A DNA stretch of 64,000 nt from contig JACKFO010000002.1 in the NCBI GenBank assembly GCA_020632415.1, positions 578,732 to 642,731 on the forward strand, in the 5' to 3' direction. Shown here piece after piece: positions 21,189 to 53,763 of this stretch. The stretch comes from Candidatus Nomurabacteria bacterium (lineage in GTDB: Bacteria > Patescibacteriota > Patescibacteriia > UBA1558 > GWA2-36-10). Positions within the stretch are counted from its first letter, which is position 1; each line of letters opens with the position of its first letter. The notes beneath the pieces are model-generated. The model was not told where the DNA came from and searched no databases. It saw nothing but the letters and a program-made list of their open reading frames with translations. A program made the translations under genes and the position numbers.

Positions 21189-21878
21189 ATGTTGAAAAAA
21201 ATTACCCAAAAAACAGCCTATGCTCGTTCTCGTCCAAAAAGCCAAGGACCATACACTCAAATTTATTTAATTCGTCACTGTAAACCAGATTACACTCAGC
21301 AAAAAGAACTTGGTGATGCTCATATGCCACTTGATCAGACTGGCTTGAAACAAAGAAAATTATTAAACAAAAAATTATTTTCTATCCACATCGATAAAGT
21401 TTATACCAGTGAGTTTTTACGTGCCCAACAAACTGCTGAAATCTATTTGAAAAAAACTAAAAAAAATCCTATTGTAGACAAAAGATTTAATGAAGTTGAT
21501 TGGAGTGAATGGTATAAAATGAAGTACTTTAATATGTCTGAGAAAACTCGCGTCAAACGAGTAAAGGCCTATAAAGAAATGGACAAAAATCTCAGCAAAC
21601 TTCAAACTCGTTTCCGTCGTATCTTAGCTGACATTTATCATCACAACAAAGGAAAAGACGTGGCAATCTTTTGTCATGGCAATGTCATTCGTTCTATTCT
21701 TACCAGTATTTTAAATACCGATGTTGTTGGATTTTTATCAATCGAAGTTTATCAATCCTCTATTTCCAAAATCGTGATCGACAAACACGGCTATGTCAAA
21801 ATAAATTACATGAACAATATTGGACATTTACCGCATAAACCGCACGAAGACTTATTCAAATTTGCCTTGGAGCAATAA
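21189..21878 (+). CDS. Histidine phosphatase (phosphoglycerate-mutase-like) family protein
   Basis: IYLIRHCKP (RHG-type motif) and a second catalytic His in AIFCHGNVIRS. Confidence 0.6.
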   Translation: MLKKITQKTAYARSRPKSQGPYTQIYLIRHCKPDYTQQKELGDAHMPLDQTGLKQRKLLNKKLFSIHIDKVYTSEFLRAQQTAEIYLKKTKKNPIVDKRFNEVDWSEWYKMKYFNMSEKTRVKRVKAYKEMDKNLSKLQTRFRRILADIYHHNKGKDVAIFCHGNVIRSILTSILNTDVVGFLSIEVYQSSISKIVIDKHGYVKINYMNNIGHLPHKPHEDLFKFALEQ

Positions 21879-21928: not shown

Positions 21929-24091
21929 TTATAATTTGATATTTTTTATTCGCAAACTATTTGATACCACAGAAACACTACTTAAGCTCATCGCCAACGC
22001 GGCAATCATCGGACTCAAATAACCCAAAGCCGCTAACGGAATAGCAACTACATTATAAATAAAAGCAAAAAATAAATTTTGTTTAATAATTTTAAAAGTT
22101 TTTTTGGATAATTTAATAGCACTCAAAACTGCGCGTGGATCGTTTTGCATCAAAACAATATTACCACTTTCCATCGCTACATCAGTACCCGCCCCCAAAG
22201 CAATGCCCAAATCTGCTTGAACTAAAGCCGGAGCATCGTTAATCCCATCGCCAACAAAAGCAACCACTTTACCAGCACTCTGGAGTTTCTGAATTTCTGC
22301 TACTTTTTGATCTGGCAAAACTTCGGCAATTACATTTTTTACTCCTAATTGCTGTGCGATATTTTCGGCACTGAGCTGATGATCACCAGTCAACATATAA
22401 ACTTCTAATTCTTTTGACAAAGCCTCAACAGCTGCTTTGGAGCTGGCCCTTAATTGATCAGCCACTGCTACCAAGCCTAATATTTCGCGATCTTGAATAA
22501 AATACATTACTGTCTTGCCACTAGAAGCGTATTGAATAAATTTATCTTGAAAATTTTGCTTCAAATTTAAATTTAATTCTTTGATTAATTCTAAATTACC
22601 CAAATGTATTTCACTCTTCTCCACTATGCCTCGTAAACCTTTGCCACGAATAGCCTGCACTTCTGTAGCTGCTAATAAACTTAAGTGTTTTTCTTTGCTG
22701 TAGCTGACAAAAGCTGTTGCTAAAGCATGCTCACTATTTTTTTCTACAGAACAAGCCAAAATCATCAGACGTTCTTTGGATAAACTTTCAGAAAAAGTCT
22801 CGATATCCGTCACTTGCAAACGGCCCTCAGTCAAAGTGCCGGTTTTATCAAAAACTACGGCTTGCACTTTGTGCGCTATTTCCAAACTCTGTGAATCTTT
22901 GATCAAAATACCGTTGGCCGCTCCCTTGCCACTGCCCACCATCACCGCTGTTGGCGTCGCCAAACCTAAAGCACATGGACAAGCAATGACCAAAACCGCT
23001 ACGGCATTAATCAAGCTCGCTACAAAACTGACGTCCAGCACAAAAAACCACAGCACAAAAGTAAGCGCCGCAATCACCAATACTACTGGCACAAAAATGC
23101 CAGAAACCAAATCGGCAAGTTTTTGAATCGGCGCTTTTGTATTTTGAGCATTTTCTACTAGTTTGATAATTTGAGCCAAAACTGTATCATTGCCAATTTT
23201 ATTCACCTTGACTTTGATCACGCCAAAGCTATTAATCGTCGCTCCATAAACCAAATCGCCAACTTTTTTATCAACCGGCACACTCTCTCCAGTGAGCATT
23301 GATTCGTCGATCGAAGTTTCTCCTTCAATAATTTCTCCATCCGAGGGAATTTTTTCTCCTGCCTTAACTAATAAAACATCATCTAATTTAATTTCGGCAA
23401 TATCTTTTTTAAGCTCTTCTCCGGCCACTAAAATCGTAGCTTGCTTGACGCTCAATGAAAATAACTTCTTGATCGCTGTCGAAGCTCGACCCTTGCTTTT
23501 TTCTTCCAGATATTTGCCCAACAAAATCAAAGTAATAATAATCGCTGCTGTTTCAAAATATAAATGCTGACCTGCAAACATCGCGTAAAGACTATAAAAA
23601 TAAGCAGCCAAAGTTCCCAAAGAAATCAAAGTGTCCATATTGGCCTTGAATTTTTTGAGTTGCAAAAACATTCCTCGATGGAACTGCCAACCCAGCACAA
23701 AAACAACTATTAGTGCCAAAAATTGCAGCAACCAAATATCCAAACTAATACTCAAAAAACTAGCTGACAAGTTCAGCTGATAAAACATAGAGGCCAACAA
23801 AGGTAAGCTCAAAACCAAGGCCCAAAGAAATTTATGCCAAGCCTGAGTTGTTGCTTGATCTTCTGATTTTTGATCTAAATTTTCAATCACTTTATAATCT
23901 CCCGCCCCACGCACCGCCTGATGAATATCGTCTAAAGTTGTTTTTTGATCATCAAAAACCACCGCTGCTTTACCAGTCGCATAATTGACATGTGATTTTT
24001 CCACTCCTGACAATTTACCAATACTCTTTTCTAAGCTCACCGCGCAGCTAGCGCAATGCATGCCAGCAATTTGAATATTTATTTCTTTCAT
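21929..24091 (-). CDS. copA: Copper-translocating P1B-type ATPase
   Basis: N-terminal HMA ([10 protein letters not shown]), CPC motif ([11 protein letters not shown]), [17 protein letters not shown]. Confidence 0.95.
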
Positions 24092-37488: not shown

Positions 37489-37533
37489 ACCCCATCAGCA
37501 AACTACTCCCTAAAAGAGTAGTTTTTTGATATA
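37489..37533 (+). repeat. Repeated module copy 2 (Y element only)
   Basis: 45/45 identical to 34605-34649. Ends 26 nt before the ATG of the 37560 gene. Confidence 0.7.
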
Positions 37534-37559
37534 ATAAAAATATAATTAAAAATAAAATT

Positions 37560-37958
37560 ATGAAAATTATCTTAGGATATTTCTTGACTTTTTTAAGCTT
37601 TTTTTTGATCGATATGCTTTGGCTTGGTTTTTTAGCTAAAGGTGTTTATAAAAAATATTTAGGATCAATCATTGGCCAAGAAGTAAATTGGCCTCCGGCC
37701 ATGATATTTTATTTGCTTTTTGTTTTAGGAGTTGTTGTATTCGTAATTTGGCCGGCAATTGAAAAAAATTCTTTAACTCATGCAATTTTGTTTGGCTTGT
37801 TTTTTGGTCTAGTGACTTATGCTACTTATGATTTGACTAATTATGCAACTATCAAAAACTGGCCACTGCAAATCGTCTTGATTGATCTTGCTTGGGGCTC
37901 TGTGTTATCAATGATTGTTGCTTTTGTTGGTTTTTATATTTTTAAATACCTAAAATAA
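37560..37958 (+). CDS. Small polytopic membrane protein (DUF2177-like)
   Basis: 132 aa, four TM. Translationally coupled to the next gene through an ATGA overlap. Confidence 0.45.
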   Translation: MKIILGYFLTFLSFFLIDMLWLGFLAKGVYKKYLGSIIGQEVNWPPAMIFYLLFVLGVVVFVIWPAIEKNSLTHAILFGLFFGLVTYATYDLTNYATIKNWPLQIVLIDLAWGSVLSMIVAFVGFYIFKYLK

Positions 37959-38737
37959 TGTTTGAAGCATTTTTTATTAGCGCAATAACAATTTTTATTT
38001 ACGCCTCTCTTTGGTTCATTATTTCTTTGATCATAAAAAGAAATGACATTGCTGATATTGCTTGGGGTTTAGGATATATTTTGTTAGTTTTATTTTTTCT
38101 CTTTCAACAAAATAATACCTACGAAGACTACTTGCTTTATATCTTGATTATTTTATGGGGATTAAGATTATCCATTCATATATTTATCAGGAATCAAGGT
38201 AAAACGGAAGATTATAGATATAATCAGTGGCGTAAAGAGTGGGGAAAATATTTTTATATTCGCTCATATCTACAAATTTATTTACTACAAGGATTTTTAT
38301 TAATTTTGATAGCCTCGCCAATAATCTTAACTTCGGTTAATACAAATAATCATTTAAATTTTTTGAGTTTTTTAGGCCTCATCATTTGGTTTATTGGTTT
38401 TTATTTTAAAAGCGTCGGAGATTACCAATTAGCAAAATTTTTAAAAAACCCAGAGAACAAAGGAAAAATTTTAAAAACCGGTTTATGGCAATACACTAGA
38501 CATCCAAATTATTTTGGAGAAGTGACAATGTGGTGGGGCATATTTTTAATAGTTGTAAATTTAAATAATTTTGTTTATGCCTTAATGAGCCCATTGACTA
38601 TTACAATTTTGATTTTATTCATTTCGGGGGTGCCATTGTTAGAGAAAAAATATCAAGGAGATCCAGAATTTGAAAAATACAAAAAAGAAACTAATAAATT
38701 TTTTCCATCTTTTAGAAAAAATAAAATATCCTCTTAA
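37958..38737 (+). CDS. DUF1295/ICMT-like membrane methyltransferase-fold protein (steroid 5-alpha-reductase-like family)
   Basis: WQYTRHPNYFGEVTMWWGIF carries the RHPNYxGE signature of DUF1295 and isoprenylcysteine carboxyl methyltransferase-like proteins. Confidence 0.65.
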   Translation: MFEAFFISAITIFIYASLWFIISLIIKRNDIADIAWGLGYILLVLFFLFQQNNTYEDYLLYILIILWGLRLSIHIFIRNQGKTEDYRYNQWRKEWGKYFYIRSYLQIYLLQGFLLILIASPIILTSVNTNNHLNFLSFLGLIIWFIGFYFKSVGDYQLAKFLKNPENKGKILKTGLWQYTRHPNYFGEVTMWWGIFLIVVNLNNFVYALMSPLTITILILFISGVPLLEKKYQGDPEFEKYKKETNKFFPSFRKNKISS

Positions 38738-38756
38738 AACTTTACTATAGCTTTAA

Positions 38757-38856
38757 CAATTCTGATTAATAAAAATAGTCTAAATTGTTATAGATAATTT
38801 TTCCCTGCCTACCGGCAGACAGGAGATTGACCTCGCTGTTTTGCCTCATCAAACAA
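38757..38856 (+). repeat. Repeated module copy 3: X, a 19-bp hairpin insert CTGCCTACCGGCAGACAGG, then a diverged Y
   Basis: X is 44/48 identical to copy 1 (all differences fall in TGAG versus TAAT). The Y region has diverged (ATTGACCTCGCTGTTTTGCCTCATCAAACAA). Confidence 0.6.
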
Positions 38857-38952
38857 TCATTCCAAAAGGATATGGCAGCAGAAAAGCTTTAAACCCTTGC
38901 TTTTTCCTTAAAAAAAGACTACACTAGGTCAATAATTATCTAAAATATTCAT

Positions 38953-39075
38953 ATGGCAAAAAGATTACATGCTGTTGGCCGAGTACAAAAATCAAATTCC
39001 AAAAAAACTAAAAAAAGATTGGAAATAAAAAAAGCAATGCTCGAAGCCAAAGCTAACAAAAAAAAGAAGAAATAA
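38953..39075 (+). CDS. Tiny highly basic protein (40 aa, MAKRLHAVGRVQKSNSKKTKKRLEIKKAMLEAKANKKKKK)
   Basis: Hand translated. Lies downstream of repeat copy 3. A bidirectional terminator AATACCACCTTAAGGTGGTATT follows at 39083-39104, shared with greA. Confidence 0.3.
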   Translation: MAKRLHAVGRVQKSNSKKTKKRLEIKKAMLEAKANKKKKK

Positions 39076-39105
39076 TTTTAAAATACCACCTCTTAAGGTG
39101 GTATT

Positions 39106-39603
39106 TTATTCTATTTTTAAAACTTGATACTTGATATTTCTCTCTTCTGTTTTTAATTCAATAATATCGCCGACTTTTTTATCTAACAACAACTGCCCCA
39201 AAGGCGATGAATGAGAAATCACTCCTTTGCTCGGATCGGTTTCGACGGAGCCTAAAATCTGATATTTAATCTCTTGGCCATTAAACCCCAAGCTTACACT
39301 GTGTCCAACTTGAATTGTCTTTTTACTATTAGGATGAATAATCTCTGCTTTACCTAGCAAGTCCTCTAACTCTTTTAATTCCTGATTCGTTCTGCGCAGT
39401 TTACCTTTAGCAATTTGATAAGCAGCGTTTTCTGAAAAATCTCCATCAGCGGCATATTTTTTAACATCACTTGCTTGTCTGGGTCGAATTATTTCTTTTA
39501 TTTTTTGCAAACGTAAACTAAGTTCCTCAAATTTTTTTTTGGTCATTTTGGGATCTGGTCGCAAATCACTAAACTCCCCTCCTTTTCTAATTGGTACACG
39601 CAT
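39106..39603 (-). CDS. greA: Transcription elongation factor GreA
   Basis: N-terminal coiled coil plus C-terminal FKBP-like domain (ISHSSPLGQLLLDKKVGDIIELK). Confidence 0.85.
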   Translation of the reverse strand: MRVPIRKGGEFSDLRPDPKMTKKKFEELSLRLQKIKEIIRPRQASDVKKYAADGDFSENAAYQIAKGKLRRTNQELKELEDLLGKAEIIHPNSKKTIQVGHSVSLGFNGQEIKYQILGSVETDPSKGVISHSSPLGQLLLDKKVGDIIELKTEERNIKYQVLKIE

Positions 39604-39703
39604 ATTTTTCTAAACTATAGAGGCATCATAGATTAATTTGCTAAATTTAGCAACTGACAAAATATCCATTCACTCTTTTTAAAAAATATGGTAAATTATA
39701 TGC

Positions 39704-40102
39704 ATGTTGGGCTTAAAAAAAGAATTAGAATTTTGGAGATTTTTATCTCACTTCTGGGGAATTTTGACCGCTTTATTTTTTTTAGTTAATTTCTTAAAAA
39801 TTTTAGATTTATCTCAGGCGATAAAAACTGTAGCCGTTATCTATATTGGAATTTTATCATTATTTACCACGACCAAAGAATTTGCTCGCTGGAAAAATAA
39901 AAAATTTCTTTCCAACCATAACGGAGAATTATTTATTTTCATCTGGACAATTTTGATTTTAATTTTTATTTTCTTTAATGTCAGTGATCCGATTAAATAC
40001 CAAATCCCTGGAGAATTCACAGCCACTTATTTATCGATCTTGGGCATTTTTGCTATTAGTCGCCAATCTCGTAATTTTAAAAACCACAACATAAATAATT
40101 AA
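39704..40102 (+). CDS. Hypothetical small membrane protein
   Basis: ORF with four hydrophobic helices. Confidence 0.4.
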   Translation: MLGLKKELEFWRFLSHFWGILTALFFLVNFLKILDLSQAIKTVAVIYIGILSLFTTTKEFARWKNKKFLSNHNGELFIFIWTILILIFIFFNVSDPIKYQIPGEFTATYLSILGIFAISRQSRNFKNHNINN

Positions 40103-40111
40103 TAAGAAAAG

Positions 40112-40498
40112 ATGAAGAAGACAATCGTTACTATTTTCAGCGCTGGCCTGTGGATTACATTTTCTGAATTTTTTAGAAATGAAATACTTCTCAAAAATTA
40201 TTGGACGGAACATTTTGAATCACTTGGTTTAACATTTACAACCACAGCAATCAATGGCCTGATCTGGCTTGTATGGAGTTTTTCCTTGGCTTATCTAATT
40301 TATCAATTGCTAAAAAAATTCGACACCAAAAAAACTATTTCTTTGGTGTGGCTCGGCATGTTTTGGATGATGTGGCTAACTATTTACAACTTACAAACAT
40401 TGCCACTAAAAATTTTGATTTTTGCCATTCCTTTAAGTTTATTAGAAATCATGATAGCCGTATTAATTATTCAAAAATTAAAAAAGTCTTTATTGTAA
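40112..40498 (+). CDS. Hypothetical small membrane protein
   Basis: ORF with three to four hydrophobic helices. Confidence 0.4.
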   Translation: MKKTIVTIFSAGLWITFSEFFRNEILLKNYWTEHFESLGLTFTTTAINGLIWLVWSFSLAYLIYQLLKKFDTKKTISLVWLGMFWMMWLTIYNLQTLPLKILIFAIPLSLLEIMIAVLIIQKLKKSLL

Positions 40499-40515
40499 CT
40501 AACATCTAAAAATTT

Positions 40516-40956
40516 ATGACAATATTTATCGGGGCAGATCATAATGGTTGGCAATTAAAAGAAAAAATTAAGCTCGCTCTACAAAAACAAAGGCACAAAG
40601 TTAGTGACCAAGGAAATTTAAGTTTCCAAGCAACAGATGATTATCCTGACTTTGCTAAAAAAGTAGCTTTGATGATCAAAAAAAATAAAAACTCCGTCGG
40701 AATTCTACTTTGTGGTAGCGGCCAGGGCATGTGCATGGCCATTAATCGTTTTGCGCATATTCGCGCGGTCGTGGCTCATTCAAAAAGCGCAATCAAAGCA
40801 GCTCGCCAAGATGAAGATGTTAACGTTATTTGTTTGCCTGCCAAAGAATTAAATCTCAAAAAATCCCAGGAGTTAATCAAAGTTTTTTTTGAAACTCCTT
40901 TCTCAAAATTACCACGTCATCAAAAAAGAATTAAAAAATTAAGTAGCCTCAAATAA
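40516..40956 (+). CDS. rpiB: Ribose-5-phosphate isomerase B
   Basis: IFIGADHNGWQLKEKI … LLCGSGQGMCMAINRFAHIRAV matches RpiB/LacAB. Confidence 0.85.
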   Translation: MTIFIGADHNGWQLKEKIKLALQKQRHKVSDQGNLSFQATDDYPDFAKKVALMIKKNKNSVGILLCGSGQGMCMAINRFAHIRAVVAHSKSAIKAARQDEDVNVICLPAKELNLKKSQELIKVFFETPFSKLPRHQKRIKKLSSLK

Positions 40957-40960
40957 ATCA

Positions 40961-41605
40961 ATGCCTCAAAAAATTCAAATCATCCCCTCGCTTTTGGCCT
41001 TTGACTTAAATGAATTAGAAAAACAATACAAAAAAGTTGCCAAAGAATTTCCTCTCCTCCAACTTGATATTATGGACGGCGAATTTGTAAAAACCAAAAA
41101 TAATTTTAGCCCGCGGAAGATTAAAAAAATTGTTAAGACTACAAATCTTGAACTACATCTGATGGTCAAGGATATCAATAGCTACATTGGACCTTGGGCG
41201 CATTTTAAAAACACCAAAAAAATTATTTGGCACTACGAAGCAAACTCTGACCCAGAGGATATTCAAGCCGCTTTAAAATGGTTGAAAAAAAACAAAATCA
41301 AAGCAGGCCTTGCGATTAATCCAAAAACTAAATTAAAAAATATTTTGTCTCTCATAAAAAAATTCGATACTATTCTGATTATGAGTGTTACTCCTGGTAA
41401 GCAAGGCCAAAAATTTGATAAAAAATCTTTGAGTAAAATAAAAAAATTAAGAAAAAAATTTCCCCAACTAAATATCGAAATTGACGGGGGCGTCAACGAA
41501 AAAAATTACAAAAAAATTAGCAAAGCTGGTGCAAACTTAATCGTCATCGGTAGCTATTTACAAGAAGCTGAAAACTTAAAAACAGCGATTGCAAACTTAA
41601 AATAA
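40961..41605 (+). CDS. rpe: Ribulose-phosphate 3-epimerase
   Basis: PSLLAFD…LDIMDGEFV…HLMV…IDGGVN pattern. Confidence 0.85.
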   Translation: MPQKIQIIPSLLAFDLNELEKQYKKVAKEFPLLQLDIMDGEFVKTKNNFSPRKIKKIVKTTNLELHLMVKDINSYIGPWAHFKNTKKIIWHYEANSDPEDIQAALKWLKKNKIKAGLAINPKTKLKNILSLIKKFDTILIMSVTPGKQGQKFDKKSLSKIKKLRKKFPQLNIEIDGGVNEKNYKKISKAGANLIVIGSYLQEAENLKTAIANLK

Positions 41606-41669
41606 ATTGAGCTAAAAAACAACCAGAAAAATTACTGGTTGTTTTTATTTTCTTTAAACTAAAATGTTT

Positions 41670-44585
41670 CTACCAATCCTTCAACTTAAAGCTTAAGTTA
41701 TCTAGGATTCTAGTATACCAGTATCTGACTGGGATGGTAATAATATCTTGCCATTTAAAGCCTAGAGATAAGAAAGTGTTTTGGTCTTTGATCCAGTATT
41801 CTATACCGTCTTGAACATAGAAGACTTGAGGATAAGAACCATGTTTTAATAATTGTCCACTAGGATGAATGTCTGAGCTAGTAATGTTTTCTCCTATTGT
41901 GTAGTAACTAAAGTCTTCTGCTGGTAAGTTAACTATTTTATTGAAGTCATAACCAAAGTCAGAGAAGATATTAGCACTTGTAATCCATCTTAGGGTTTTA
42001 TTAGGCTCTACAGCATAGACTTTGTTAGAATCTTGGAATTTAACTAGATTACCTGGTTTAACAGTAAGTCTTCCAAGGTAAGGATAGCTATTATTTAAAG
42101 TAACTTGGTCTAAGGTTTGAAGAGAGTTGAAGTTATTAAACCAAGTGTAGAAAGTAGCTAGGTTAGGGATATAGTATCTTTTACTTTCTTGGTTAATGTA
42201 ATAGACTCTAGGATCTTGGGAAGCTTTGGCTAGAAATCCTTGAGGATAAAGGATGTTAAGAGAGTTTGGAGTTGTAGTGGCTGGAGTATCTTCTTCTATT
42301 TGGCAGAGGTAGGAACAACCATCACCATTGTTAAGGTTTCCATCGTCACACGTTTCTCCTGTTTCTATGATGGAGTTACCACATACTATTGGAGGGTTCT
42401 CTGGTGGTGGAGGTGGGTTTATCTCTTCATTACCTCCTCCATTGTCACAAGCAGAGCAAGAGCCTCCACAGTCTATTCCTGTTTCATTGCCATTTTGGAT
42501 ATTGTCTGTACATGAAGCTGGTGGTGGGGTTTCTTGTTCTATTTGGCAACTTGAGGAACAACCATCGCCATTGTTAAGGTTTCCATCATCACAGGTTTCT
42601 CCACTTTCTAGGATGGAGTTGGAACATTGAGGGACGATCATGGCAATATTGTAAACGCCCATATCAGGCTGCGCTCCTGAAAAATAATTTGTTGCAAAAC
42701 CAGGCAAAGGATCATAAGCTTGGTCGTCAATATTAAAACTCTGAGAAATATCAATACCAGACTCTCTAGCTAGGCTGTCTTCAGGCAAAAGAAAATTCGG
42801 AATAATTGAAGCATCCCACATGTATGATCCATCTTCCAAAAAATTATGCTCCCCAAACCAAGGAGGCAAAGGGTCATAATAATAATGCTCTCCACCATCC
42901 CAATTATAATCAAAGCCACCAAATAAATTTGTTTGTTGAATTAATTCCCTATTTAAATAAACTGTTCTAAAAGCAGAAAAAATATTGTTTACAAATAAGA
43001 CATTAGGATACCCCTCTTGCTCAATATTACTTAGACCAGAAAACATTTTATAAGCACCAGTAAAACTATTGTGATAAATATAAAAATGTGGGTGTGTCGT
43101 TCCTGCTGGCCAATCATCTAGATTAATCCTATGAGCAAAAATATGAGAACTTACTCCTTGAGGATTATAAAATTTATTTCTATAAATATAAGCACTTCTT
43201 TCATTGTCGCCGACTTCATCGGTATGATGCAATCTTAAATTAATATTAGCGTCTTTTAAGAAATTATCATGAATTTCTGTATTTTTACAATAAGAAATTT
43301 GTAGAATATTTATACTAGAACCACCCTCGATGTCATTAGTATAAATTTTGATTCCATCCATAGTATGTGTTGCATCACCCCAGATAGAAATGCCAATCAA
43401 ATTATTTCTTAACTGATTACTATATACTTCATTATAATCCCCTGCTGACTGCATAGCTATGCCATAATCAAAAGTACCGCCTGGACCAAACCAATATTTA
43501 TACATAATATAAAAAGCCTCTTTGACTAGAAAATCATACCTCTGCTCTTCGTTCCAGCCATCACTATGACGATCATCCCAAGCACCTGGCTGATAATTAG
43601 ATAAAAATTTTGGATTTAAATAATTGTCGTAAATATAATTATAAGAAGTTTGATGTCCAGTAAGATAAATTCTTCTAGACCCACCATAAATAGAATTATT
43701 TCTAATATGATTAAATTGCGCACCATTATTCAGGCTCACTCCATTTTCTCCGCCATAAATTTTAAAACCCTGAATAACGACATTGTATGCTCCATTGATA
43801 TTAATCGTTGAATCACCTTGATAATTAAATTTTAAATTCTCATTGTTTGGGTTTCTATTATCCCTAAAATGAAGATATAAATAATCTCCCTCATTACCAA
43901 ACAAAGCTTCCGTTGGATCCCAATAATCAATTAAATCATCGGGGTCAGCATGATAATGCAAATGTGTCTGTTGACCATCTTGGTAAGCTATCATTTCAAA
44001 ACCAGTATGTTCAGATAAATCATCTGCTTGAGCATTAACCAGATGAGAATCATCCATTATTGAACTTAAATCCTGATAAAAACCGGGAATTTTTTTATAG
44101 CTTGCTCCCTCTCCAATTGACATCACTCTCACTGGAACATCATTCTCTTTCATAATTTTCCAAACACCTATCCCGACTTCTGGTGCTTGCACCCAAGCAT
44201 GTTCTGAAAATCTTCCGCCATCAATAATTACTTCACCATCTGATTGAAAAATAATTGGCTCTTCTACTGTTCCCGACATAGTTATCTCAATCCTCTCATT
44301 ATATGTTCCTTGATGAACAATAACCGTGTCTCCAGCCGTAACGGTATCAGCAGCTTTTTGAATACTTCTCCATGGATTATCAGATGTCCCTAATCCTGAC
44401 ACATCACTACCAGAAACAGAAACATGGTAAGTATTAGCACTATCCGCCTTAGCAAAAAATGATGTATCTGAATTTTTAATGGAATAGCTAAACCAAATAT
44501 TAAACAAAGACAAAACAAAGATCGCCAGAACACTGACAATCATCCTATTTTTTAAAGTATCTTCAATTAGCTTAAAATGTTTCAT
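41670..44585 (-). CDS. Giant surface protein (971 aa): right-handed parallel beta-helix repeats, two Cys-rich CxxxxGExCDDGNxxxGDGC repeats, and a shared ~250 aa C-terminal domain
   Basis: N-terminal TM/signal anchor. PbH1-like repeats (NNSIYGG, HDNFL, NNIF). Myxococcus-type cysteine-rich repeats. A poly-Pro linker. The C-terminal 330 aa are near-identical to those of the next gene. Confidence 0.8.
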   Translation of the reverse strand: MKHFKLIEDTLKNRMIVSVLAIFVLSLFNIWFSYSIKNSDTSFFAKADSANTYHVSVSGSDVSGLGTSDNPWRSIQKAADTVTAGDTVIVHQGTYNERIEITMSGTVEEPIIFQSDGEVIIDGGRFSEHAWVQAPEVGIGVWKIMKENDVPVRVMSIGEGASYKKIPGFYQDLSSIMDDSHLVNAQADDLSEHTGFEMIAYQDGQQTHLHYHADPDDLIDYWDPTEALFGNEGDYLYLHFRDNRNPNNENLKFNYQGDSTININGAYNVVIQGFKIYGGENGVSLNNGAQFNHIRNNSIYGGSRRIYLTGHQTSYNYIYDNYLNPKFLSNYQPGAWDDRHSDGWNEEQRYDFLVKEAFYIMYKYWFGPGGTFDYGIAMQSAGDYNEVYSNQLRNNLIGISIWGDATHTMDGIKIYTNDIEGGSSINILQISYCKNTEIHDNFLKDANINLRLHHTDEVGDNERSAYIYRNKFYNPQGVSSHIFAHRINLDDWPAGTTHPHFYIYHNSFTGAYKMFSGLSNIEQEGYPNVLFVNNIFSAFRTVYLNRELIQQTNLFGGFDYNWDGGEHYYYDPLPPWFGEHNFLEDGSYMWDASIIPNFLLPEDSLARESGIDISQSFNIDDQAYDPLPGFATNYFSGAQPDMGVYNIAMIVPQCSNSILESGETCDDGNLNNGDGCSSSCQIEQETPPPASCTDNIQNGNETGIDCGGSCSACDNGGGNEEINPPPPPENPPIVCGNSIIETGETCDDGNLNNGDGCSYLCQIEEDTPATTTPNSLNILYPQGFLAKASQDPRVYYINQESKRYYIPNLATFYTWFNNFNSLQTLDQVTLNNSYPYLGRLTVKPGNLVKFQDSNKVYAVEPNKTLRWITSANIFSDFGYDFNKIVNLPAEDFSYYTIGENITSSDIHPSGQLLKHGSYPQVFYVQDGIEYWIKDQNTFLSLGFKWQDIITIPVRYWYTRILDNLSFKLKDW

Positions 44586-44675
44586 TTTACTTCTTTATTT
44601 TAACATTTTATAACATTTTAAAAAAGAGTCCCGTCTGACGGAGACTCTTTTTATTTTCTTTAAACTAAAATGTTT

Positions 44676-47600
44676 CTACCAATCCTTCAACTTAAAGCTT
44701 AAGTTATCTAGGATTCTAGTATACCAGTATCTGACTGGGATGGTAATAATATCTTGCCATTTAAAGCCTAGAGATAAAAAAGTGTTTTGGTCTTTGATCC
44801 AGTATTCTATACCGTCTTGAACATAGAAGACTTGAGGGTAAGAACCATGCTTTAATAATTGTCCACTAGGGTGAATATCTGAAGTAGTAATGTTTTCTCC
44901 TATTGTGTAGTAACTAAAGTCTTCTTGAGGAAGATGGATGATTTTATTAAAGTCATAACCAAAGTCAGAGAAGATATTGCCACTTGTAATCCATCTTAGG
45001 GTTTTTTCTGGTTCTATTGCATAGACTTTGTTAGAGTCTTGGAATTTAACTAGATTACCTGGTTTAACAGTAAGTCTTCCTTCGTATGGATAGCTATTAT
45101 TTAAAGTAACTTGGTCAATGACTTGAAGAGAGTTAAAGTTGTTAAACCAAGTGTAGAAAGTAGTAAGGTTAGGGATGTAATATCTTTTACTTTCTTGGTT
45201 AATGTAATATACCCTAGGGTCGTTAGGCGCTTTGGCTAGAAAGCCTTGAGCTTTTAAAACATTAATTGAGTTAGTGGTTGATGTCGCTTGATTGTCTTCT
45301 TCTATTTGACAGAGGTAGGAACATCCATCTCCATTGTTAAGGTTTCCATCGTCACACGTTTCTCCACTCTCTTGGATAGAGTTGCCACAAGCTATTGGAG
45401 GGTTCTCTGGTGGAGGTGGTGGTTGGTTTCCTCCTCCGTTGTCACAAGCAGGGCAAGAACCTCCACAGTCTATTCCTGTTTCATTACCATTTTGGATATT
45501 GTCTGTACATGAAGCTGGTGGTGGGGTTTCTTGTTCTATCTGGCAAGTTGAGGAACAACCATCACCATTGTTAAGGTTTCCATCGTCACAGGTTTCTCCA
45601 CTTTCTAGGATGGAGTTGGAACAAGTTGGGCCTGAGGCATATTCTAAAAGTCCAATGTCTGGAGCAAAGCCTTGGAAGTTGTTGGTGTTTACTCCACTGA
45701 TTAACATTCCTTGATCAATGGCTGGAGAATTAGATTGAAGAGTAAAGTTTTCTTGAGAGAAATTAGTAAACAATGGGTTAGTTTGGAGAGAAAGTGATTC
45801 TTGAGAAGAATGTGTTTTATAATCTGCAAAAACATATTCTGCGGTACTAGAATCCCCCAAATCCTGATAAACAAATTTTACCTCACTAGCATTTGGCGCA
45901 TAATACAAATTATTGTTGTAAGTATTAAGAGAATGATCAACATCGTAAGCTAAGCTTGCTGGAATTACTTTGTAAGGACTTGTCGAATAAAAAATATTAT
46001 TAGCAATCGTGTTGTCACGAACGTTATCGCCATCCGGAGCATCCATGTCGGCATAGACTTTAAGACCGTATTTAAAATCTCCGACAAAAATGTTATGAGC
46101 AATCGTGTTATTAATGCTGTAGGCCCAAGTCAAATCTGGATCAGTACCATCTGAATTTTCTAAAATAACCGCTGGGTAAGTAGAATTATCTTTTTCAGTT
46201 AAAATATCCAGAAATTTATTATAAATAGCAACGTTATTTTGACCAGCGTCAATATGCAAGCCAATTCCATATGGTGTATAAAATGTATTATTTTGCACCA
46301 AACTATCATCAGTGTCCGAAAGCCAAATTCCCGTTACCCAGCCTGGCGCAAAATAAGCTGGGTCTTCAACGATGTTATTATGAATATTAATTCGAGCTAC
46401 ACGATAATCAGCGGTGCCCTCTAGCAACATTCCATTTCCTCCTGCTCTAACAATGTGATTATTATAAACTTCAATATCTGAAGCATTGTGAATTGATAAT
46501 GAGGAGGCTAAATTAAACAAACCATTACCCTCGTGATAATTATCATGAATTGAAAGATCTTTGGTGTAGTAAGTCAAAGTGCCGCAGCTACCATTATTAA
46601 TAAATTGATTATTATAAATCTCCGAATTTACTGAATGATATTGACTACCATTAACACCAAAATTTGGACCATAATAATACAAACCAATTCCCCCGTTATT
46701 CTCTGCCAAAGAATTTTTAAAAATAATATTTTCATTATAATGTTCCGTGGTATAGTTTGGATTATAATAGGCATAAAAATAAGCTCCCGTCGAACCATTG
46801 TTATAAATATGTAAATCATCAAAAACTAGATCATGATTTCCTTCAATATCACGACTAGTTGTTTTTGTATAGACATATAACCCAATACTACCAGCGTAAC
46901 GAATATCAAAATTTCTAAATTCGATGTGATAAGATTCGTATTCTCCATTGGTTCCAAAATAAACAGCCGTTGAACGAGATGGTATTTCTACAATATGTGC
47001 CGAAGGATGACCTCCTGAAATGGTTCTAACATAGACATAGTCCGGATCCTCTGATTGTTCGCCCAATTGATACAAATATTCTCCCGCTGAATCTAAAAGA
47101 TTAAGATTATCAATCAAATGATAGGGACTCGTATCAGTCGGATCTCCATATTTAAAACTTTCATCCGGATTAGTCAATAAAAAATCATTTTCATTAGGAT
47201 CAGTAGAAAAAGTAGCAGTGCTAGTTTCTCGATCATAAGCAACGATCTTAGCTTTTTTATGCCAAAGATACTCGGTCATTATTTCTGCCCAAGAACCAAT
47301 GATTTTTTCATCAGGCAAAACATTCAGATCTGAATCGATCAAATATTCCCTAGTAAACATTGAGCTCTCTAATCTGTCTAAGTTATCTTCTGGATAACGA
47401 GCTGAATACAAAACCTGACCATCTTCAAAAACACCGCGATAGGCATCCTCGCTGTTGACCAAAGTTGTTCGATAAAGGCCATTGCCCATGTCTTCCCAAG
47501 CAGTTTTTAAAACTCCAGCCGAAAAGATAACCTCTTCATCTTGATACCCTTCGATCTTATTAGGTCTGCCAGCAACCCCATTTGGCCAATAATAAGAAGT

Positions 47601-47921
47601 CAAATAATCACGATAAATGCCCTCCCGAAAATAAATGGTATTACCACCGGTTTGAATTTCTCCGCTAGATTGCTTGGTTTGTATCGCCTTTAATCCGACA
47701 GTCGATCTCGACCAAGCAGAATAGCCAGTGTTGATTTGAGTACAACTACGAGTACTTGGGCTATAATTATCTTGCAAACAATCCTCAGTTAAATTTTGAT
47801 CAATAAAAAAAGTTTTACTGACCAGCGCTGCTTTCAATAAAACCAGAGAACTAACAGCCGCACCAAAAAATAGGGCGACTACCGATAATAATATAATTTT
47901 TCTGAGATTAAGCCTCTTCAT
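44676..47921 (-). CDS. Giant surface protein (1081 aa), a paralog of the previous gene with a divergent beta-helix N-terminal part and a near-identical C-terminal module
   Basis: Signal anchor and many beta-helix repeats (NNQFINNG, HDNYHEGNG, NNHIV…). The same CDDGN repeats and C-terminal domain ending ILDNLSFKLKDW. Confidence 0.8.
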   Translation of the reverse strand: MKRLNLRKIILLSVVALFFGAAVSSLVLLKAALVSKTFFIDQNLTEDCLQDNYSPSTRSCTQINTGYSAWSRSTVGLKAIQTKQSSGEIQTGGNTIYFREGIYRDYLTSYYWPNGVAGRPNKIEGYQDEEVIFSAGVLKTAWEDMGNGLYRTTLVNSEDAYRGVFEDGQVLYSARYPEDNLDRLESSMFTREYLIDSDLNVLPDEKIIGSWAEIMTEYLWHKKAKIVAYDRETSTATFSTDPNENDFLLTNPDESFKYGDPTDTSPYHLIDNLNLLDSAGEYLYQLGEQSEDPDYVYVRTISGGHPSAHIVEIPSRSTAVYFGTNGEYESYHIEFRNFDIRYAGSIGLYVYTKTTSRDIEGNHDLVFDDLHIYNNGSTGAYFYAYYNPNYTTEHYNENIIFKNSLAENNGGIGLYYYGPNFGVNGSQYHSVNSEIYNNQFINNGSCGTLTYYTKDLSIHDNYHEGNGLFNLASSLSIHNASDIEVYNNHIVRAGGNGMLLEGTADYRVARINIHNNIVEDPAYFAPGWVTGIWLSDTDDSLVQNNTFYTPYGIGLHIDAGQNNVAIYNKFLDILTEKDNSTYPAVILENSDGTDPDLTWAYSINNTIAHNIFVGDFKYGLKVYADMDAPDGDNVRDNTIANNIFYSTSPYKVIPASLAYDVDHSLNTYNNNLYYAPNASEVKFVYQDLGDSSTAEYVFADYKTHSSQESLSLQTNPLFTNFSQENFTLQSNSPAIDQGMLISGVNTNNFQGFAPDIGLLEYASGPTCSNSILESGETCDDGNLNNGDGCSSTCQIEQETPPPASCTDNIQNGNETGIDCGGSCPACDNGGGNQPPPPPENPPIACGNSIQESGETCDDGNLNNGDGCSYLCQIEEDNQATSTTNSINVLKAQGFLAKAPNDPRVYYINQESKRYYIPNLTTFYTWFNNFNSLQVIDQVTLNNSYPYEGRLTVKPGNLVKFQDSNKVYAIEPEKTLRWITSGNIFSDFGYDFNKIIHLPQEDFSYYTIGENITTSDIHPSGQLLKHGSYPQVFYVQDGIEYWIKDQNTFLSLGFKWQDIITIPVRYWYTRILDNLSFKLKDW

Positions 47922-47940
47922 TAATTTAACTGGGAAATTA

Positions 47941-50547
47941 TTATTCTCCTGCTCGATGACGTTTAATAAAAAAAATCAGTCCTGAACTCACAAGAACCGC
48001 CAAGAAGGCTCCTAGGATATAATAAAATAAATTACCATTGCCCTGATCAGTTTTTGGCAAAAGCTGTTTTAAATAATTATTAGAATCCGTCTTCATAGAC
48101 TCCTTAACTAATAAAGAGCGTGGATTTGACTGTTTCAAAATTTTACCATCTTGATCATTGACGGCCAAATAGATTTCATGCTCCCCTTCAGCTAAAGCTG
48201 AATTCAAAGAATAGGACCAAGCTCCAGACTGATCGCTCTTGGTGCTCAAAACCAAAGGTAAATCACTATAAATATAAATAGTTAGCCAAACATCAGGGTC
48301 AACTGTTCCGGATAACTCTAGACTTTGATCATCTTTAAACTCTGTTTTTATTTGCCAAGCACTTTCAATTGCTGCTCTTTTAATTTTTGCTTGTTCCAAA
48401 GAAGCCCCGGCTAAAACGAGTTCCGCGAAATTGCTAAATTTCTCTTCTAATTGACCACTGCCATTAGGATTGTAAGAATTTTTTATTTCTACCAAATCTG
48501 AATAACCATCAGCGTCAGAATCCTGATTTAATGGATCAGTAGCAAAATATTTTTCCAAGTCATCAGGCAAACCGTCCTGATCAGAATCAAGCATCAGCAC
48601 TGCTGCTGGCACATCCTCCAAAACGCTCTCTTTACTTAAAACCGTAGCTTTCTGAGAATTAAAAACCAAAACTGACTGTTCTTTAGCTAAAACTGGATCT
48701 AAAGATAAATTTTTAGCACCAAATAAAGCCTCATTTAATTCCCCTATCTTTGTTGTTTTTCCTAAAAATGGGACTAAATCTTGATTTAATTTTTCTTGTT
48801 CTAGTTTTCTAACCACCAAACGATTCAAGTATTCTTCGGCCAAAATTTTCTGACATGAATTTGTATCACCAGAAGCACAAGTAACATCTGAAGCATAAGT
48901 TTCTAAAAGATAATTATGGCAAGCTTGCCGATCAAAGAGTTGCTGTTCTTGGCATTTCAAATCAACGACCGTCCGATTTAAATAATCTTCACAGGAATTA
49001 ACCTCATCTATTCCTTCATCTAAACAAATTTGGTCAAGATCAGCTCCTCCTAAATTTTCTTCTTTTTTAATTTGCTCAAGGCCCTCTTCTTGTTTCTGAC
49101 ATTTACCGACAACGCAAGAGCAGCTTCCTCTCGGAATTGCCGCACAGTCAACTACTGGTAGTTCACTTTGAGCATAGCAACCGCTACACAAATTTACACA
49201 ATCAGCATCTACTTGGCAGAGAGCAGGCTTTTCTTCCTGATCGTCTTTTTCGTCAACTACAGCAGCTTGACTTTGCTCTGATTCATTGTCCTGATCATCT
49301 TCGCTTTCAATAGCTGGTGAGGCCAGAGACAAATTTTCTTCAGACTGTAAAGCTAAATTTAAAACAAAATCTTCTTCATAAACTACTCCGCTAGAATCAG
49401 TAGCAATCGCCGCCAAAATATAAACCCCATCAATAAAATCTTGATCCAAAACAACGCTCTTGTTCCAATGAAGGCCATCAAATTTACTAATCGAATATTC
49501 ATCACCGATCGAAGCATCATCTTCTTTAACTAACAAAAAACCAAAATCATTAGCAATAAAATTACTTCTAAACTCAAAACTTAATTCCGGATGACTTACA
49601 AAACTATTATCCTGAGGACTAAGTAAGCTGATCTGATAATTTTCTGGGTTGCTTTCTAAATTTAAAATTTCCTCTTCACTCAAATGTTGATTTTCGTCTA
49701 TCTTGTTTTCTGTAATTTCAAAAATTAGCGGTTGATTTAAATAATTTAAATTTTGATTTAACCAAACAACCAGATAGTATTCTCCAAGTGGATAGTTTTT
49801 TATCTCGCCAAAATTAGCGCCATACAAAACTGGATCATTATTAATCATTGTTAACTCAAAATTTGTAAACAAATCTCCCTCAATGTTATACAAACTTGCT
49901 CCCAAAATTTCATCTGCATTTAAAGCTCGATTTAAGCTTAATTCTATGGGAAAATTATCTTGATTAATATTTTCTTGAACGCTTGGAGAGCTTAAGTTGA
50001 TTAATAATTCTGTTGCTAAGTCAGCAAGCTTATTCGAATCGTCTGACTCCTCTGTTTTTGTTTCTTCTGAGATATTTTGATCAGTCGTAGCATCTTTTGA
50101 CTCAGCGGCAATAACGATTTCACCAGATAAGCTTATCTTCACTTCTGGCGAAACTTTAAATATTACTAAATTTCCTGCTGAGTCATAGCTACTGGCTTGG
50201 GCTGACAAAAAATAATCGCCAGCCAGAAAAGAGCTGGTATCCCAAAAGCTATCAGCAGACCAAAAACCATCCTCGTCTAAAAAAGCTTGCCATTGCAACT
50301 CAAAAGATTTATTCTGATCTTTGACTACAAAATTAAAAGTATCAAAATCTTCTACGTCAAAATTTCTTCCCTGCAATTTTACTAATTCTCCGACTTGAAA
50401 ATGATCAGCGCTTAAAACAAATTGAAAATTCAACTGTTGAGTATTGTCATAAGCAGCCCGAGTAGTCACAAAAACAATACCTTGAGTAAAAACTAGTAAA
50501 AAAATAAATATTTTAAATAAAAAGTGATTGATTTTTTCCGTAATCAT
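47941..50547 (-). CDS. Large surface protein (868 aa) with an N-terminal signal, thrombospondin-type-3-like DxDxDG calcium-binding motifs, a Cys-rich segment and a C-terminal TM anchor
   Basis: DSDQDGLPDD…DSDADGYSD; CQVDADCVNLCSGC…; C-terminal LFYYILGAFLAVLVSSGLIFFIKRHR. Confidence 0.7.
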   Translation of the reverse strand: MITEKINHFLFKIFIFLLVFTQGIVFVTTRAAYDNTQQLNFQFVLSADHFQVGELVKLQGRNFDVEDFDTFNFVVKDQNKSFELQWQAFLDEDGFWSADSFWDTSSFLAGDYFLSAQASSYDSAGNLVIFKVSPEVKISLSGEIVIAAESKDATTDQNISEETKTEESDDSNKLADLATELLINLSSPSVQENINQDNFPIELSLNRALNADEILGASLYNIEGDLFTNFELTMINNDPVLYGANFGEIKNYPLGEYYLVVWLNQNLNYLNQPLIFEITENKIDENQHLSEEEILNLESNPENYQISLLSPQDNSFVSHPELSFEFRSNFIANDFGFLLVKEDDASIGDEYSISKFDGLHWNKSVVLDQDFIDGVYILAAIATDSSGVVYEEDFVLNLALQSEENLSLASPAIESEDDQDNESEQSQAAVVDEKDDQEEKPALCQVDADCVNLCSGCYAQSELPVVDCAAIPRGSCSCVVGKCQKQEEGLEQIKKEENLGGADLDQICLDEGIDEVNSCEDYLNRTVVDLKCQEQQLFDRQACHNYLLETYASDVTCASGDTNSCQKILAEEYLNRLVVRKLEQEKLNQDLVPFLGKTTKIGELNEALFGAKNLSLDPVLAKEQSVLVFNSQKATVLSKESVLEDVPAAVLMLDSDQDGLPDDLEKYFATDPLNQDSDADGYSDLVEIKNSYNPNGSGQLEEKFSNFAELVLAGASLEQAKIKRAAIESAWQIKTEFKDDQSLELSGTVDPDVWLTIYIYSDLPLVLSTKSDQSGAWSYSLNSALAEGEHEIYLAVNDQDGKILKQSNPRSLLVKESMKTDSNNYLKQLLPKTDQGNGNLFYYILGAFLAVLVSSGLIFFIKRHRAGE

Positions 50548-50652
50548 CGATTATTTTTTCAAAAATTATGTCTATATTATAACACAAATGAATCTAAATA
50601 AAAAATCAGCCGTAAAAGAACTTAAAGCTGATTCAACTTGCAAAAATAAGCT

Positions 50653-51495
50653 CTACTCACAAGCACATAAACGATAAAAATACAGGTAGACCTCTGAGCA
50701 AGTATACGCTGGGTTGGCTGCATCAGAAAAACAATAGTGCCCACCTCCAGCAAAATCTGGATCGAGTTTTGCTGGTGCATAAGGCTGACCATCTGCAACG
50801 GTACACCCACCCGTGCAATCTAAGCCCGCTGCAGCGTGTAAACTACAATCACCCGATGCCTCCACTACATCCGCTACGCAGGTCAAAGCATTCTCAGAAC
50901 AAACCTCTGTACAAGTCATGCCAGTAGCGCTGGCTACATACCAACAATAGCCACCAAAATCAGTTCCACCGCAAGAAGGAGCAGTCGCAATTGCTACTTT
51001 AATTTGCGTATTAAAAACCACTTCTGAATCTGCATAATCACAAGAGCCAATCAATAAATTACCAGCAGCATCGCCTGTTAAATAATAGCCAGTATCTGCA
51101 GAATTTATTTTTTCTGGATCAACCGGCAAAGTAGCTAAATAAGAATCCAAAAAATCAGTCGAACTATCAACGACCAAACACTCTAGCTCATCACCGGCAC
51201 AAGTTAGAGTAGTCGCTGTGTCACACAAGACTTTCTTAGTGGTCGTAATCTCTCCAGTAATTGGTAATTGTCCTTGGTTATTTCGAACATAGTCTTTCAA
51301 GGCTTGCGCAACGACCAAAATATCCTGATTTCTTCTAGAGTCTTTAGCGGCATTCAGACGGGTAGCTGGATCAACAGCAACCCAAAGGCCAGCGGCCAAG
51401 ATAACAAACACCGCAAGCGAGACAATTAAACCTGGCAAACTAAATCCTTTGTTATTTACCACTTTATTCTCCCCTAAATTTTCTGAAAAACTCAT
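50653..51495 (-). CDS. Type IV pilin-like or pseudopilin-like protein with a non-canonical N-terminus (no Glu5) and a Cys-rich C-terminal domain
   Basis: Leader …NNKG then FSLPGLIVSLAVFVILAAG, where KGF-S-L-P-G replaces the canonical KGFTLIE. The C-terminal 110 aa contain about 16 Cys. GC is somewhat elevated (~45%). Confidence 0.55.
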   Translation of the reverse strand: MSFSENLGENKVVNNKGFSLPGLIVSLAVFVILAAGLWVAVDPATRLNAAKDSRRNQDILVVAQALKDYVRNNQGQLPITGEITTTKKVLCDTATTLTCAGDELECLVVDSSTDFLDSYLATLPVDPEKINSADTGYYLTGDAAGNLLIGSCDYADSEVVFNTQIKVAIATAPSCGGTDFGGYCWYVASATGMTCTEVCSENALTCVADVVEASGDCSLHAAAGLDCTGGCTVADGQPYAPAKLDPDFAGGGHYCFSDAANPAYTCSEVYLYFYRLCACE

Positions 51496-52659: not shown

Positions 52660-52977
52660 ATGAAATCAAGCTTAAACTACAATCAACAATTATTCCAAGC
52701 CTTTTTACAATTAAAAAACTCTGAAGAATTGGGACGTTTTTGCCATGATTTATTAAGTCCTAGTGAAATCAGGGAAGTTTCTGCTCGTTTTCAAGCCGCC
52801 AAAATGCTCAAAAACAAAATCTCCTACCAAGTGATTATTGCGGAGACTGGACTTTCTTCAGCCACGATTGCCAAAATTTCCCGCAATCTCAAAAATAGCC
52901 GCGGTGGCTATAAATTAGCTTTCAAAAGACTTAGTGATCGTAAATTGCATCTTGAAAAGAAAACTAATAACTGTTAA
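52660..52977 (+). CDS. TrpR-like (YerC/YecD family) DNA-binding protein
   Basis: GLSSATIAKISRNLKNS helix-turn-helix signature of the Trp-repressor family. Confidence 0.65.
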   Translation: MKSSLNYNQQLFQAFLQLKNSEELGRFCHDLLSPSEIREVSARFQAAKMLKNKISYQVIIAETGLSSATIAKISRNLKNSRGGYKLAFKRLSDRKLHLEKKTNNC

Positions 52978-53000
52978 CATAAATCAAATAATAAAAAAAT

Positions 53001-53752: not shown

Positions 53753-53763
53753 TTTGTAATTAT

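Follow-up and report, generated by a model that had tools for sequence, protein, structure and literature searches.

A 64-kb window (G+C 37%) of a Candidatus Nomurabacteria metagenome-assembled genome (MAG), to whose positions all coordinates refer unless a relative is named, contains two adjacent genes for large, predicted beta-helix proteins, here called A and B, that end in a common module of about 1 kb, and it is the history and probable role of this module that we describe here. Gene A (41670..44585) was called as an open reading frame (ORF) of 971 aa and is MCB9802993.1 in the NCBI database, a 'DUF4215 domain-containing protein'; gene B (44676..47921, 1081 aa) is MCB9802994.1, a 'right-handed parallel beta-helix repeat-containing protein'; and gene C (47941..50547, 868 aa), upstream of B, is MCB9802995.1, an 'LPXTG cell wall anchor domain-containing protein'. 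All three genes, and the parts of A and B located below, are on the minus strand. The five window proteins that were looked up all have exact NCBI matches, from a Candidatus Nomurabacteria MAG. A consists of a long leader, a predicted Pel9A-like/DUF1565-type beta-helix and the shared module, and B of an MKR-type leader, a Beta_helix/NosD beta-helix and the same module. A preliminary description of this DNA, prepared from the sequence alone, had called these proteins giant, a term that is too strong for 971 and 1081 aa.

The module copies lie at 41642..42626 in A and 44648..45623 in B, forming a direct repeat with a start-to-start spacing of 3006 nt. In A the copy comprises 318 codons, of which the first Cys is the start, together with the stop codon and a further 28 nt downstream that are non-coding. 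The preliminary description had correctly recognised and placed a shared 3' sequence of about 1 kb in tandem genes, but had taken the copies to be nearly identical apart from a short indel in a poly-proline linker. The indel is as reported (NEEINPPPPP against NQPPPPP, 9 nt), but the base-by-base alignment differs at 103 of its 985 columns, with 94 substitutions besides the indel, so that nucleotide identity is 89.5% (89.9% over 989 columns by blastn) and protein identity is about 90-91%. The proposed extent (41670-42660 and 44676-45660) likewise needed correction at one end: it is precisely with the initial Cys of the first DUF4215 repeat (42626/45623) that high similarity sets in, although it does run past both TAG stop codons, for 28 nt, ending where two unrelated terminator-like hairpins begin. 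A blast search of the 64-kb window found no module copies other than these two. The beta-helix bodies that precede them have diverged, as first thought, to 20.6% protein identity in the sole BLASTP hit and 26.8% in a global alignment.

Synonymous divergence (dS) between the modules is 0.37 and non-synonymous divergence (dN) 0.059, with an omega of 0.16, whereas the body domains are saturated; hence, the module copies are far younger than the divergence of the genes that carry them. Within the module, divergence is a mosaic, with dS ranging across 40-codon segments from 0.046 to 1.19, the peak falling around a Thr-rich linker and the minimum in the last 44 codons. At the extreme 3' end, a 190-nt tract in A (41642..41831), which includes the 28 non-coding nucleotides after the stop codon, has a single difference from 44648-44837 in B and is made up of identical runs of 130 nt and 59 nt, the former with P 1e-5 by permutation; for identical third positions, the longest run has a P of 0.017, and the last 64 third-codon positions show three differences where 13.6 are expected. 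This is probably the most recent gene-conversion tract. We rejected purifying selection as the only cause of this similarity, since synonymous sites and the 28 non-coding bases are conserved alike, which selection on the protein is insufficient to explain. Mismatches between the copies affect all four bases, with transitions (46) about as many as transversions (48); the target of a diversity-generating retroelement was rejected, there being no adenine bias in these mismatches and no reverse transcriptase among the neighbouring ORFs scanned.

It is exceedingly improbable that the tandem order, or the second copy itself, is an artefact of a wrong assembly join at the repeat. Each protein is on record from one contig only, an exact-sequence look-up of A returned no contig, the independent short-read Logan assembly of SRR12358676 breaks at 41671 and 45899, and an identical run of 130 nt may be enough to mislead a de Bruijn graph. 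A stop at or near the repeat is nevertheless the behaviour expected of a real repeat, while leaving the order of the copies unconfirmed, and the Logan contigs match the outer flanks (38775-41671 and 45899-60547) at 100% identity. The preliminary description had raised the possibility of a collapsed repeat; divergence of approximately 10%, together with the indel, rules this out, since it means that neither copy is collapsed or duplicated. Furthermore, the reading frame of each copy runs on into a complete body, which is a different one in A and B, the only alternative resolution of the graph would leave A as a closed 3-kb circle, and another MAG displays the same pattern of paralogues.

Close relatives were identified by a scan of GTDB species genomes, in four MAGs, yielding loci L001, L002, L003, L004 and L006. 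L003, from LaPlata bin-459, is syntenic with the window and reads, from the beta-CASP RNase side, pilin-like gene, C orthologue, B orthologue, rpe, rpiB and greA, without gene A; the B orthologue (L003 7646-10888) is 60% identical over its full length and the C orthologue (L003 5222-7636) lies directly upstream of it. In L001 the B orthologue adjoins rpe, as in L003, and in L006 the same holds for a module-bearing gene that the contig end truncates. Because B, or a module gene, stands directly next to convergent rpe in all three loci, gene A has been added in this lineage, between B and rpe. The regions downstream of module genes in the relatives show no conservation with the window and give no clue to how A was inserted.

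Bodies and modules of these genes give contrary accounts of relationship. Between B and its syntenic orthologue L003_1080, identity is 63% for the body and 67% for the module, whereas the paralogues A and B are 27% identical in the body and 91% in the module. The same is seen in the LaPlata MAG, where L003_1080 and L004_1027, on two contigs, are 23% identical in the body and 92% in the module, with 91% nucleotide identity over 731 nt. The homogenised tract spans 318 codons in the genome of A and B and 239 codons in the LaPlata MAG. Since modules of paralogues within a genome are approximately 91-93% identical, against 67% for modules of orthologues, and this holds in two lineages, the modules follow the genome and not the gene. 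This is the pattern that concerted evolution leaves, and it is to concerted evolution that we attribute the identity of the ~985-nt DNA repeat.

Another history would have the 3' end of B (the module and 28 nt) fused once to an imported Pel9A-like beta-helix, as a recent capture or partial duplication, with no continuing conversion. In its favour, the syntenic loci of three relatives lack A, and the similarity starts exactly at a domain boundary; moreover, a search for module-bearing orthologues of the A body found none, and its nearest homologues (P0271-P0273, 30-35% identity) come from other organisms and are module-less, so that one recent capture could take the place of repeated conversion. 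We nevertheless judge a single event unlikely. Divergence along the module is strongly uneven, with dS varying from 0.046 to 1.19 and a perfect 130-nt run that is not expected by chance (P 1e-5), and the other lineage has arrived at the same within-genome identity on different contigs and with different tract limits. The leader of A and its residues 398-650 are also related to B-family genes, suggesting that A is an older paralogue.

Exchange is not confined to the module. L002 and L004 are syntenic, with ten flanking genes that are 60-84% identical, and the module genes that lie between these flanks share only a leader of ~31 aa and the module. Their centres (~650-750 aa) have no BLASTP similarity, one containing Pec_lyase and the other lacking any Pfam domain; the central domain has been replaced at this locus between a conserved leader and a conserved module. 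In both genomes the module gene lies between genes for a UvrD-type helicase and an RNase_H-like/WYL-domain protein (L002 5884-7947 and 11002-11784; L004 5561-7609 and 10838-11626), and these neighbours, with their links to DNA metabolism, might be relevant to recombination there.

The module comprises, in order, a DUF4215/TIGR02232 repeat, a different unit of four cysteines, a proline linker, a second DUF4215 repeat, a Thr/Ser-rich linker and a terminal domain of 197 aa; its 12 cysteines fall into three groups of four. In A, the first cysteine-rich repeat (aa 654-687) is at 42525..42626 and the second (aa 735-768) at 42282..42383, equivalent to 45522-45623 and 45288-45389 in B. The third four-cysteine unit (aa 692-713, CTDNIQNGNETGIDCGGSCSAC; 42447..42512), delimited by its Cys positions, lies between them and has no family match in Pfam, while the proline-rich linker that carries the 9-nt indel (42390..42431) reads NEEINPPPPPENPP in A and NQPPPPPENPP in B. 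The cysteine-rich repeats had been assigned to the Myxococcus type, and this is borne out by TIGR02232 (myxo_disulf_rpt), which scores 75.8 bits in A and 72.2 in B against a cut-off of 20.8, in two stretches each, and by PF13948 (DUF4215), which scores 34.3 and 29.9 bits against a cut-off of 27. These scores lie well above the cut-offs of the family, which is that of Myxococcota repeat proteins, but A and B differ from the latter in having only two such repeats plus the other four-cysteine unit, as a spacer before a terminal domain specific to Patescibacteria. The four DUF4215 repeats, two per gene, form the D2 repeat family, with copies at 83-86% identity; compared with one another in DNA, both within and between genes, they are 83-88% identical, and proteins of the relatives contain one to three; together, these observations suggest that repeat number changes by intragenic recombination. 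The scan of GTDB genomes found this repeat also in Myxococcus, Polyangia, Peribacteria and DPANN archaea.

Most of the remaining module is the C-terminal domain, at 41673..42263 in A (aa 775-971, 197 aa) and 44679..45269 in B (aa 885-1081), the copies being 92% identical. It had been described as a terminal domain of ~250 aa and without known function; discrete and unannotated it is, but it measures about 197 aa and consists of three repeats of ~60 aa, whose homology is indicated by hidden Markov models built from repeat 1 or repeat 2 that match the other repeats with independent E-values of about 2e-4. The 197 aa match no Pfam family at E<=10 and no NCBIfam model, and have no sequence relative in the PDB; among Pfam models of known wall-binding modules (SLH, CWB2, LysM, SH3b, PG_binding, GW and choline-binding), none matches. 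Nor is there an LPXTG-type signal in A or B, both of which end in ...SFKLKDW without a C-terminal hydrophobic segment. Yet the domain is abundant: a profile search of 1.84 billion cluster representatives (50% identity) returned 6,422 proteins at E<=1e-3, 2,732 of them at E<=1e-30, and the few source names given are Parcubacteria, Uhrbacteria and 'Patescibacteria group'. It is a generic module of Patescibacteria, present in thousands of protein clusters and not peculiar to A and B. Within family proteins it stands at the C-terminus or directly after the signal peptide. In a sample of 94, 13 combine it with Peptidase_M23, in small proteins, and 20 with Big_3_5; its other partners include Big_7, Big_5, Big_13, SH3, cyclophilin, DUF3048, beta-helix, GHL15 and Pec_lyase domains, besides large proteins without Pfam domains.

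Structure prediction, also suggested at the outset, was carried out with AlphaFold2 (AF2), which models repeats 1 and 2 as beta-beta-beta-alpha-beta-alpha units with a predicted local distance difference test score (pLDDT) above 90. In the PDB, the folds that match them best belong to EccB1, in its repeat domains (E 7.6e-3, probability 0.69, low template modelling (TM) score), and to a chain of the endolysin LysIME-EF1. The EccB1 repeats consist of four strands and two helices and are weakly similar to the wall-binding phage protein PlyCB (PMC4769845). The terminal-domain repeats have the same four-strand, two-helix make-up; like those of EccB, a component of type VII secretion, and of PlyCB, they are tandem units of ~55-60 aa with a four-stranded sheet and two helices, in a setting that would be the envelope. 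The match to these best PDB candidates is, however, weak and without sequence similarity, and EccB is a membrane-anchored component of a machine and not the tail of an enzyme. Among viral models in BFVD, proteins of actinophages with two repeats match best (E 3.5e-7, TM 0.81), with phage lysin C-termini appearing as weak, single-repeat matches. The actinophage proteins A0A1I9SA71 (Rhodococcus phage Weasels2) and A0A345MGB2 (Streptomyces phage LukeCage) are ~100-115 aa long and contain just two repeats (TM 0.77-0.81), and phrog_9616, a family of unannotated function, matches the terminal-domain repeats with an E of 4.3e-6. These small phage proteins link a domain found throughout Patescibacteria to phages of Actinobacteria.

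Protein position, domain partners (notably peptidoglycan peptidases) and predicted fold jointly suggest that the terminal domain is most likely an envelope- or wall-targeting module. A different ligand is conceivable: the tail might dock enzymes onto a surface scaffold in the manner of dockerin and cohesin, with protein C as a candidate scaffold, or bind the surface of a host cell in place of the cell's own wall. Cellulosomal enzymes provide the precedent, since there different carbohydrate-active domains carry a common C-terminal dockerin; A, B and their relatives resemble them in joining varied domains of the type found in carbohydrate-active enzymes (CAZymes) to one C-terminal module of duplicated segments that may place them on the cell surface. 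Gene C, too, is conserved directly upstream of B in L003, and such source names as are given place the family largely within Patescibacteria. A ligand of a general kind, for example the wall, nonetheless fits better than one specific scaffold, because across thousands of clusters the domain occurs in fusions with M23 peptidoglycan peptidases and with many Ig-like surface proteins, which is not the cellulosomal pattern; the fold matches, weak as they are, are to wall-associated repeats, and no cohesin-like partner, scaffold or cohesin/dockerin signature was identified. We would give docking or host binding only a small share of the probability. The closer parallel to wall targeting is found in Gram-positive families of wall-binding modules, such as the CWP proteins of Clostridioides difficile, with three CWB2 repeats, and the SLH-domain proteins. 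There, as in this family, a genome encodes many paralogues that each combine an N-terminal secretion signal, a variable domain (hydrolases or Ig-like domains) and one conserved terminal set of three repeats. The repeats of A and B differ in matching no CWB2, SLH, LysM or SH3b model of Pfam and in being preceded by DUF4215 repeats, and their binding to the wall is putative.

The bodies to which this tail is attached have the appearance of enzymes. The central domain of A (42636..44444) is predicted to be a right-handed beta-helix of the Pel9A-like/DUF1565 type, with an N-terminal cap like that of GH120 and PL9 enzymes. DUF1565 (PF07602) scores 18.1 bits, under its cut-off of 20.3; precomputed matches include it as well and are the only source of PF22842 (Pel9A-like); sequence matches in the PDB cover the N-terminal cap alone (GH120 xylosidase 3vst_A, E 5.1e-8; PL9 rhamnogalacturonan lyase 5olq, E 0.0032). 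The AF2 model of this body has a pLDDT of 57.5, and its top Foldseek matches are all beta-helix glycoside hydrolases, polysaccharide lyases or phage depolymerases. The central domain of B (45636..47804) is likewise a predicted right-handed beta-helix, matching PF13229 (Beta_helix) with 42.4 bits (cut-off 25.9) and PF05048 (NosD) with 27.6 bits (cut-off 23.6). With Pec_lyase and GHL15 in the corresponding part of relatives, the variable domains look like CAZymes, with putative catalytic activity, rather than the adhesins to which the preliminary description had compared them.

Each protein has a single hydrophobic segment, at its N-terminus. In A this is the leader (aa 1-47, beginning MKHFKLIEDTLKNRMIVSVLAIFVLSLFNIWF; 44445..44585), and its DNA matches the L002 gene at 79% identity along 153 nt, of which ~47 nt precede the start codon. 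The long leader, MK(H/K)(F/Y)xFIxDxFKNRMIVS..AI..LSIFNIWF, is common to A and to relatives whose centres are beta-helix, GHL15, Pec_lyase or unassignable; it begins the genes at L002 8006, L003 7646 and L004 7733. B orthologues carry either this A-type leader or the MKR type, so leaders have been exchanged. The long leader may be a dedicated secretion or sorting signal, similar in idea to the YSIRK signals of Gram-positive bacteria. We infer that A and B are extracellular from the N-terminal hydrophobic segment, the 12 cysteines in three four-cysteine units and the neighbouring LPXTG protein.

Taken together, we think it probable, with moderate confidence, that A and B are secreted, CAZyme-like beta-helix proteins with a shared envelope-anchoring tail, which gene conversion homogenises and which serves as a handle for recombination. 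Members of the family would consist of three parts, an N-terminal leader, an interchangeable enzyme-like centre and the common tail, with the DUF4215 repeats (one to three, of disulfide type) and the proline linker probably acting as a stalk. The tail would retain the protein on the cell envelope, most likely through non-covalent binding to the wall, and so function much as SLH, CWB2, SH3b or PlyCB-type modules do in Gram-positive bacteria. Homologous recombination or gene conversion between paralogues would repeatedly overwrite the module within a genome, the latest such event having probably covered the last 190 nt, including those past the stop codon, while homology in the module and the conserved leader would allow central domains to be swapped or genes to be added, as with A. 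One possible route for the insertion of A is a single crossover inside the module with a circular or ectopic copy.

Several points weigh against this proposal, in addition to the module-less relatives of the A body. Repeat 3 and the tail are modelled poorly (AF2 pLDDT 35-60), as is the A body; the match to an EccB/PlyCB-type fold is weak, at probability 0.69 and low TM, and phage lysin C-termini match with E >0.1. Wall binding has not been demonstrated for EccB itself (PMC4769845). Eight large family proteins have the domain near the N-terminus without any Pfam domain and are thus uninformative on function, and the order of the two copies rests on one assembly, the Logan assembly stopping at the repeat.

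In the preliminary description the repeat was considered a potential hot spot of recombination and variation. Recombination on the module is supported, on evolutionary timescales, by the mosaic of dS, the 190-nt tract, the second lineage and the replaced centre; programmed variation is not, and neither is the link that the preliminary description had drawn to an episymbiotic CPR lifestyle. Antigenic or phase variation of an adhesin, in which the shared 3' kilobase would shuffle expressed and silent variants, has in its favour the tandem paralogues with conserved ends and variable middles and the evident recombination over long periods, but we regard it as very unlikely. Both genes are complete, and neither shares its start codon or its terminator-like hairpin with the other; truncated or silent cassettes and further copies are absent from the 64 kb; none of the 23 window ORFs scanned with Pfam is a recombinase, invertase or reverse transcriptase; and the bodies resemble enzymes and not adhesins. 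Cassette-type antigenic variation as in pilE/pilS or vlsE was rejected, as the window holds two complete genes only and the scanned ORFs include no recombinase.

A precedent for conversion between A and B is offered by outer-membrane paralogues of the babA/babB type in Helicobacter pylori, in which a variable middle lies between ends conserved on both the 5' and the 3' side and the loci convert one another. In both cases, ends are homogenised within the genome, centres are divergent and the middle is replaced at a fixed locus; A and B differ in being enzyme-like and of Gram-positive type, not outer-membrane adhesins, and in that their variation is seen between genomes. Shared anchor modules and gene conversion between paralogues are well known, from Gram-positive bacteria and Helicobacter, and a specialist would find the present case useful rather than startling. 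Our literature search found nothing relevant on DUF4215/TIGR02232 in Patescibacteria, or on concerted evolution of surface proteins in the Candidate Phyla Radiation (CPR). The principle is already known; the databases and literature searched contain no description of the domain family or of how large it is in Patescibacteria.

A more speculative extension, which we advance tentatively and consider rather doubtful, is that leader and tail constitute a Patescibacteria-wide 'plug-in' display system, in which the three-repeat domain is a new class of anchoring or docking module and the identity of the ends within a genome, on the scale of a kilobase, actively drives the gain, loss and swap of enzyme cassettes through homologous recombination. 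The 3,006-nt unit with A, for example, would be excised as a circle and re-inserted. If true, this would let cells with minimal genomes re-tool their surface repertoire for degrading glycans. Patescibacteria (CPR) make up a large share of bacterial diversity and their surface biology is almost wholly unannotated. The locus offers a clean way into a domain family that spans thousands of clusters and for which databases have no model. The terminal domain is a marker of secreted proteins and probably instructs the cell on where they are to be retained; once named and characterised, it would allow many 'hypothetical' CPR proteins to be annotated together. The locus is, in addition, a compact natural instance of two processes, concerted evolution and the exchange of domain cassettes, within a very small genome (842-kb contig), and it bears on how organisms with small genomes vary the enzymes that they display.

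The genes around A and B are ordinary housekeeping genes (greA, rpiB, rpe, sod, ahpC, beta-CASP RNase, ribonucleotide reductase and polynucleotide phosphorylase), among which A, B, C and a pilin-like gene form a small cell-surface gene cluster. Gene C encodes a Big_13 Ig-like domain and an LPXTG-type sorting signal (TIGR01167, 19.7 bits; cut-off 15.9). It lies outside the repeat and is part of its context; it could be a partner of the shared tail. The pilin-like gene (50653-51516, minus strand), which has a weak N_methyl motif, is upstream of B with C, and this order is kept in L003. B is followed by a terminator-like hairpin, GAGTCTCCGTCAGACGGGACTC, and a T-run (44620..44647, minus strand), which begin directly after the shared 28 nt; the spacer between B and A is 90 nt, and ~35 nt beyond the hairpin reach the A start codon. 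Between A and convergent rpe, a hairpin with a 12-bp stem (41615..41646, assigned to neither strand) could terminate transcription in both directions.

Elsewhere in the window, a family of intergenic repeats of ~75 nt, 85-91% identical, occurs at 34512-34692, 35726-35783, 37489-37565 and 38730-38804. Each contains a hairpin of terminator type, AAACTACTCCCTAAAAGAGTAGTTTTTT, a promoter-like stretch rich in A and T, and the opening codons (MKLFKNL...) of an ORF, and ORFs without Pfam matches start in these repeats at 34675, 35766 and 37560; the Logan contig break at 38775 falls inside a copy. A protein of 549 aa (13397-15046, minus strand) contains Por_Secre_tail, the sorting domain of type IX secretion (PF18962, E 1.6e-8), which is unexpected in a Nomurabacteria genome, and is adjoined by an ORF of 1162 aa (9887-13375, minus strand) without a Pfam match. 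Finally, a perfect 30-nt palindrome at 21889-21918, between the convergent genes 21189..21878 (plus strand) and 21929..24091 (minus strand, a P-type ATPase), is probably a bidirectional terminator.

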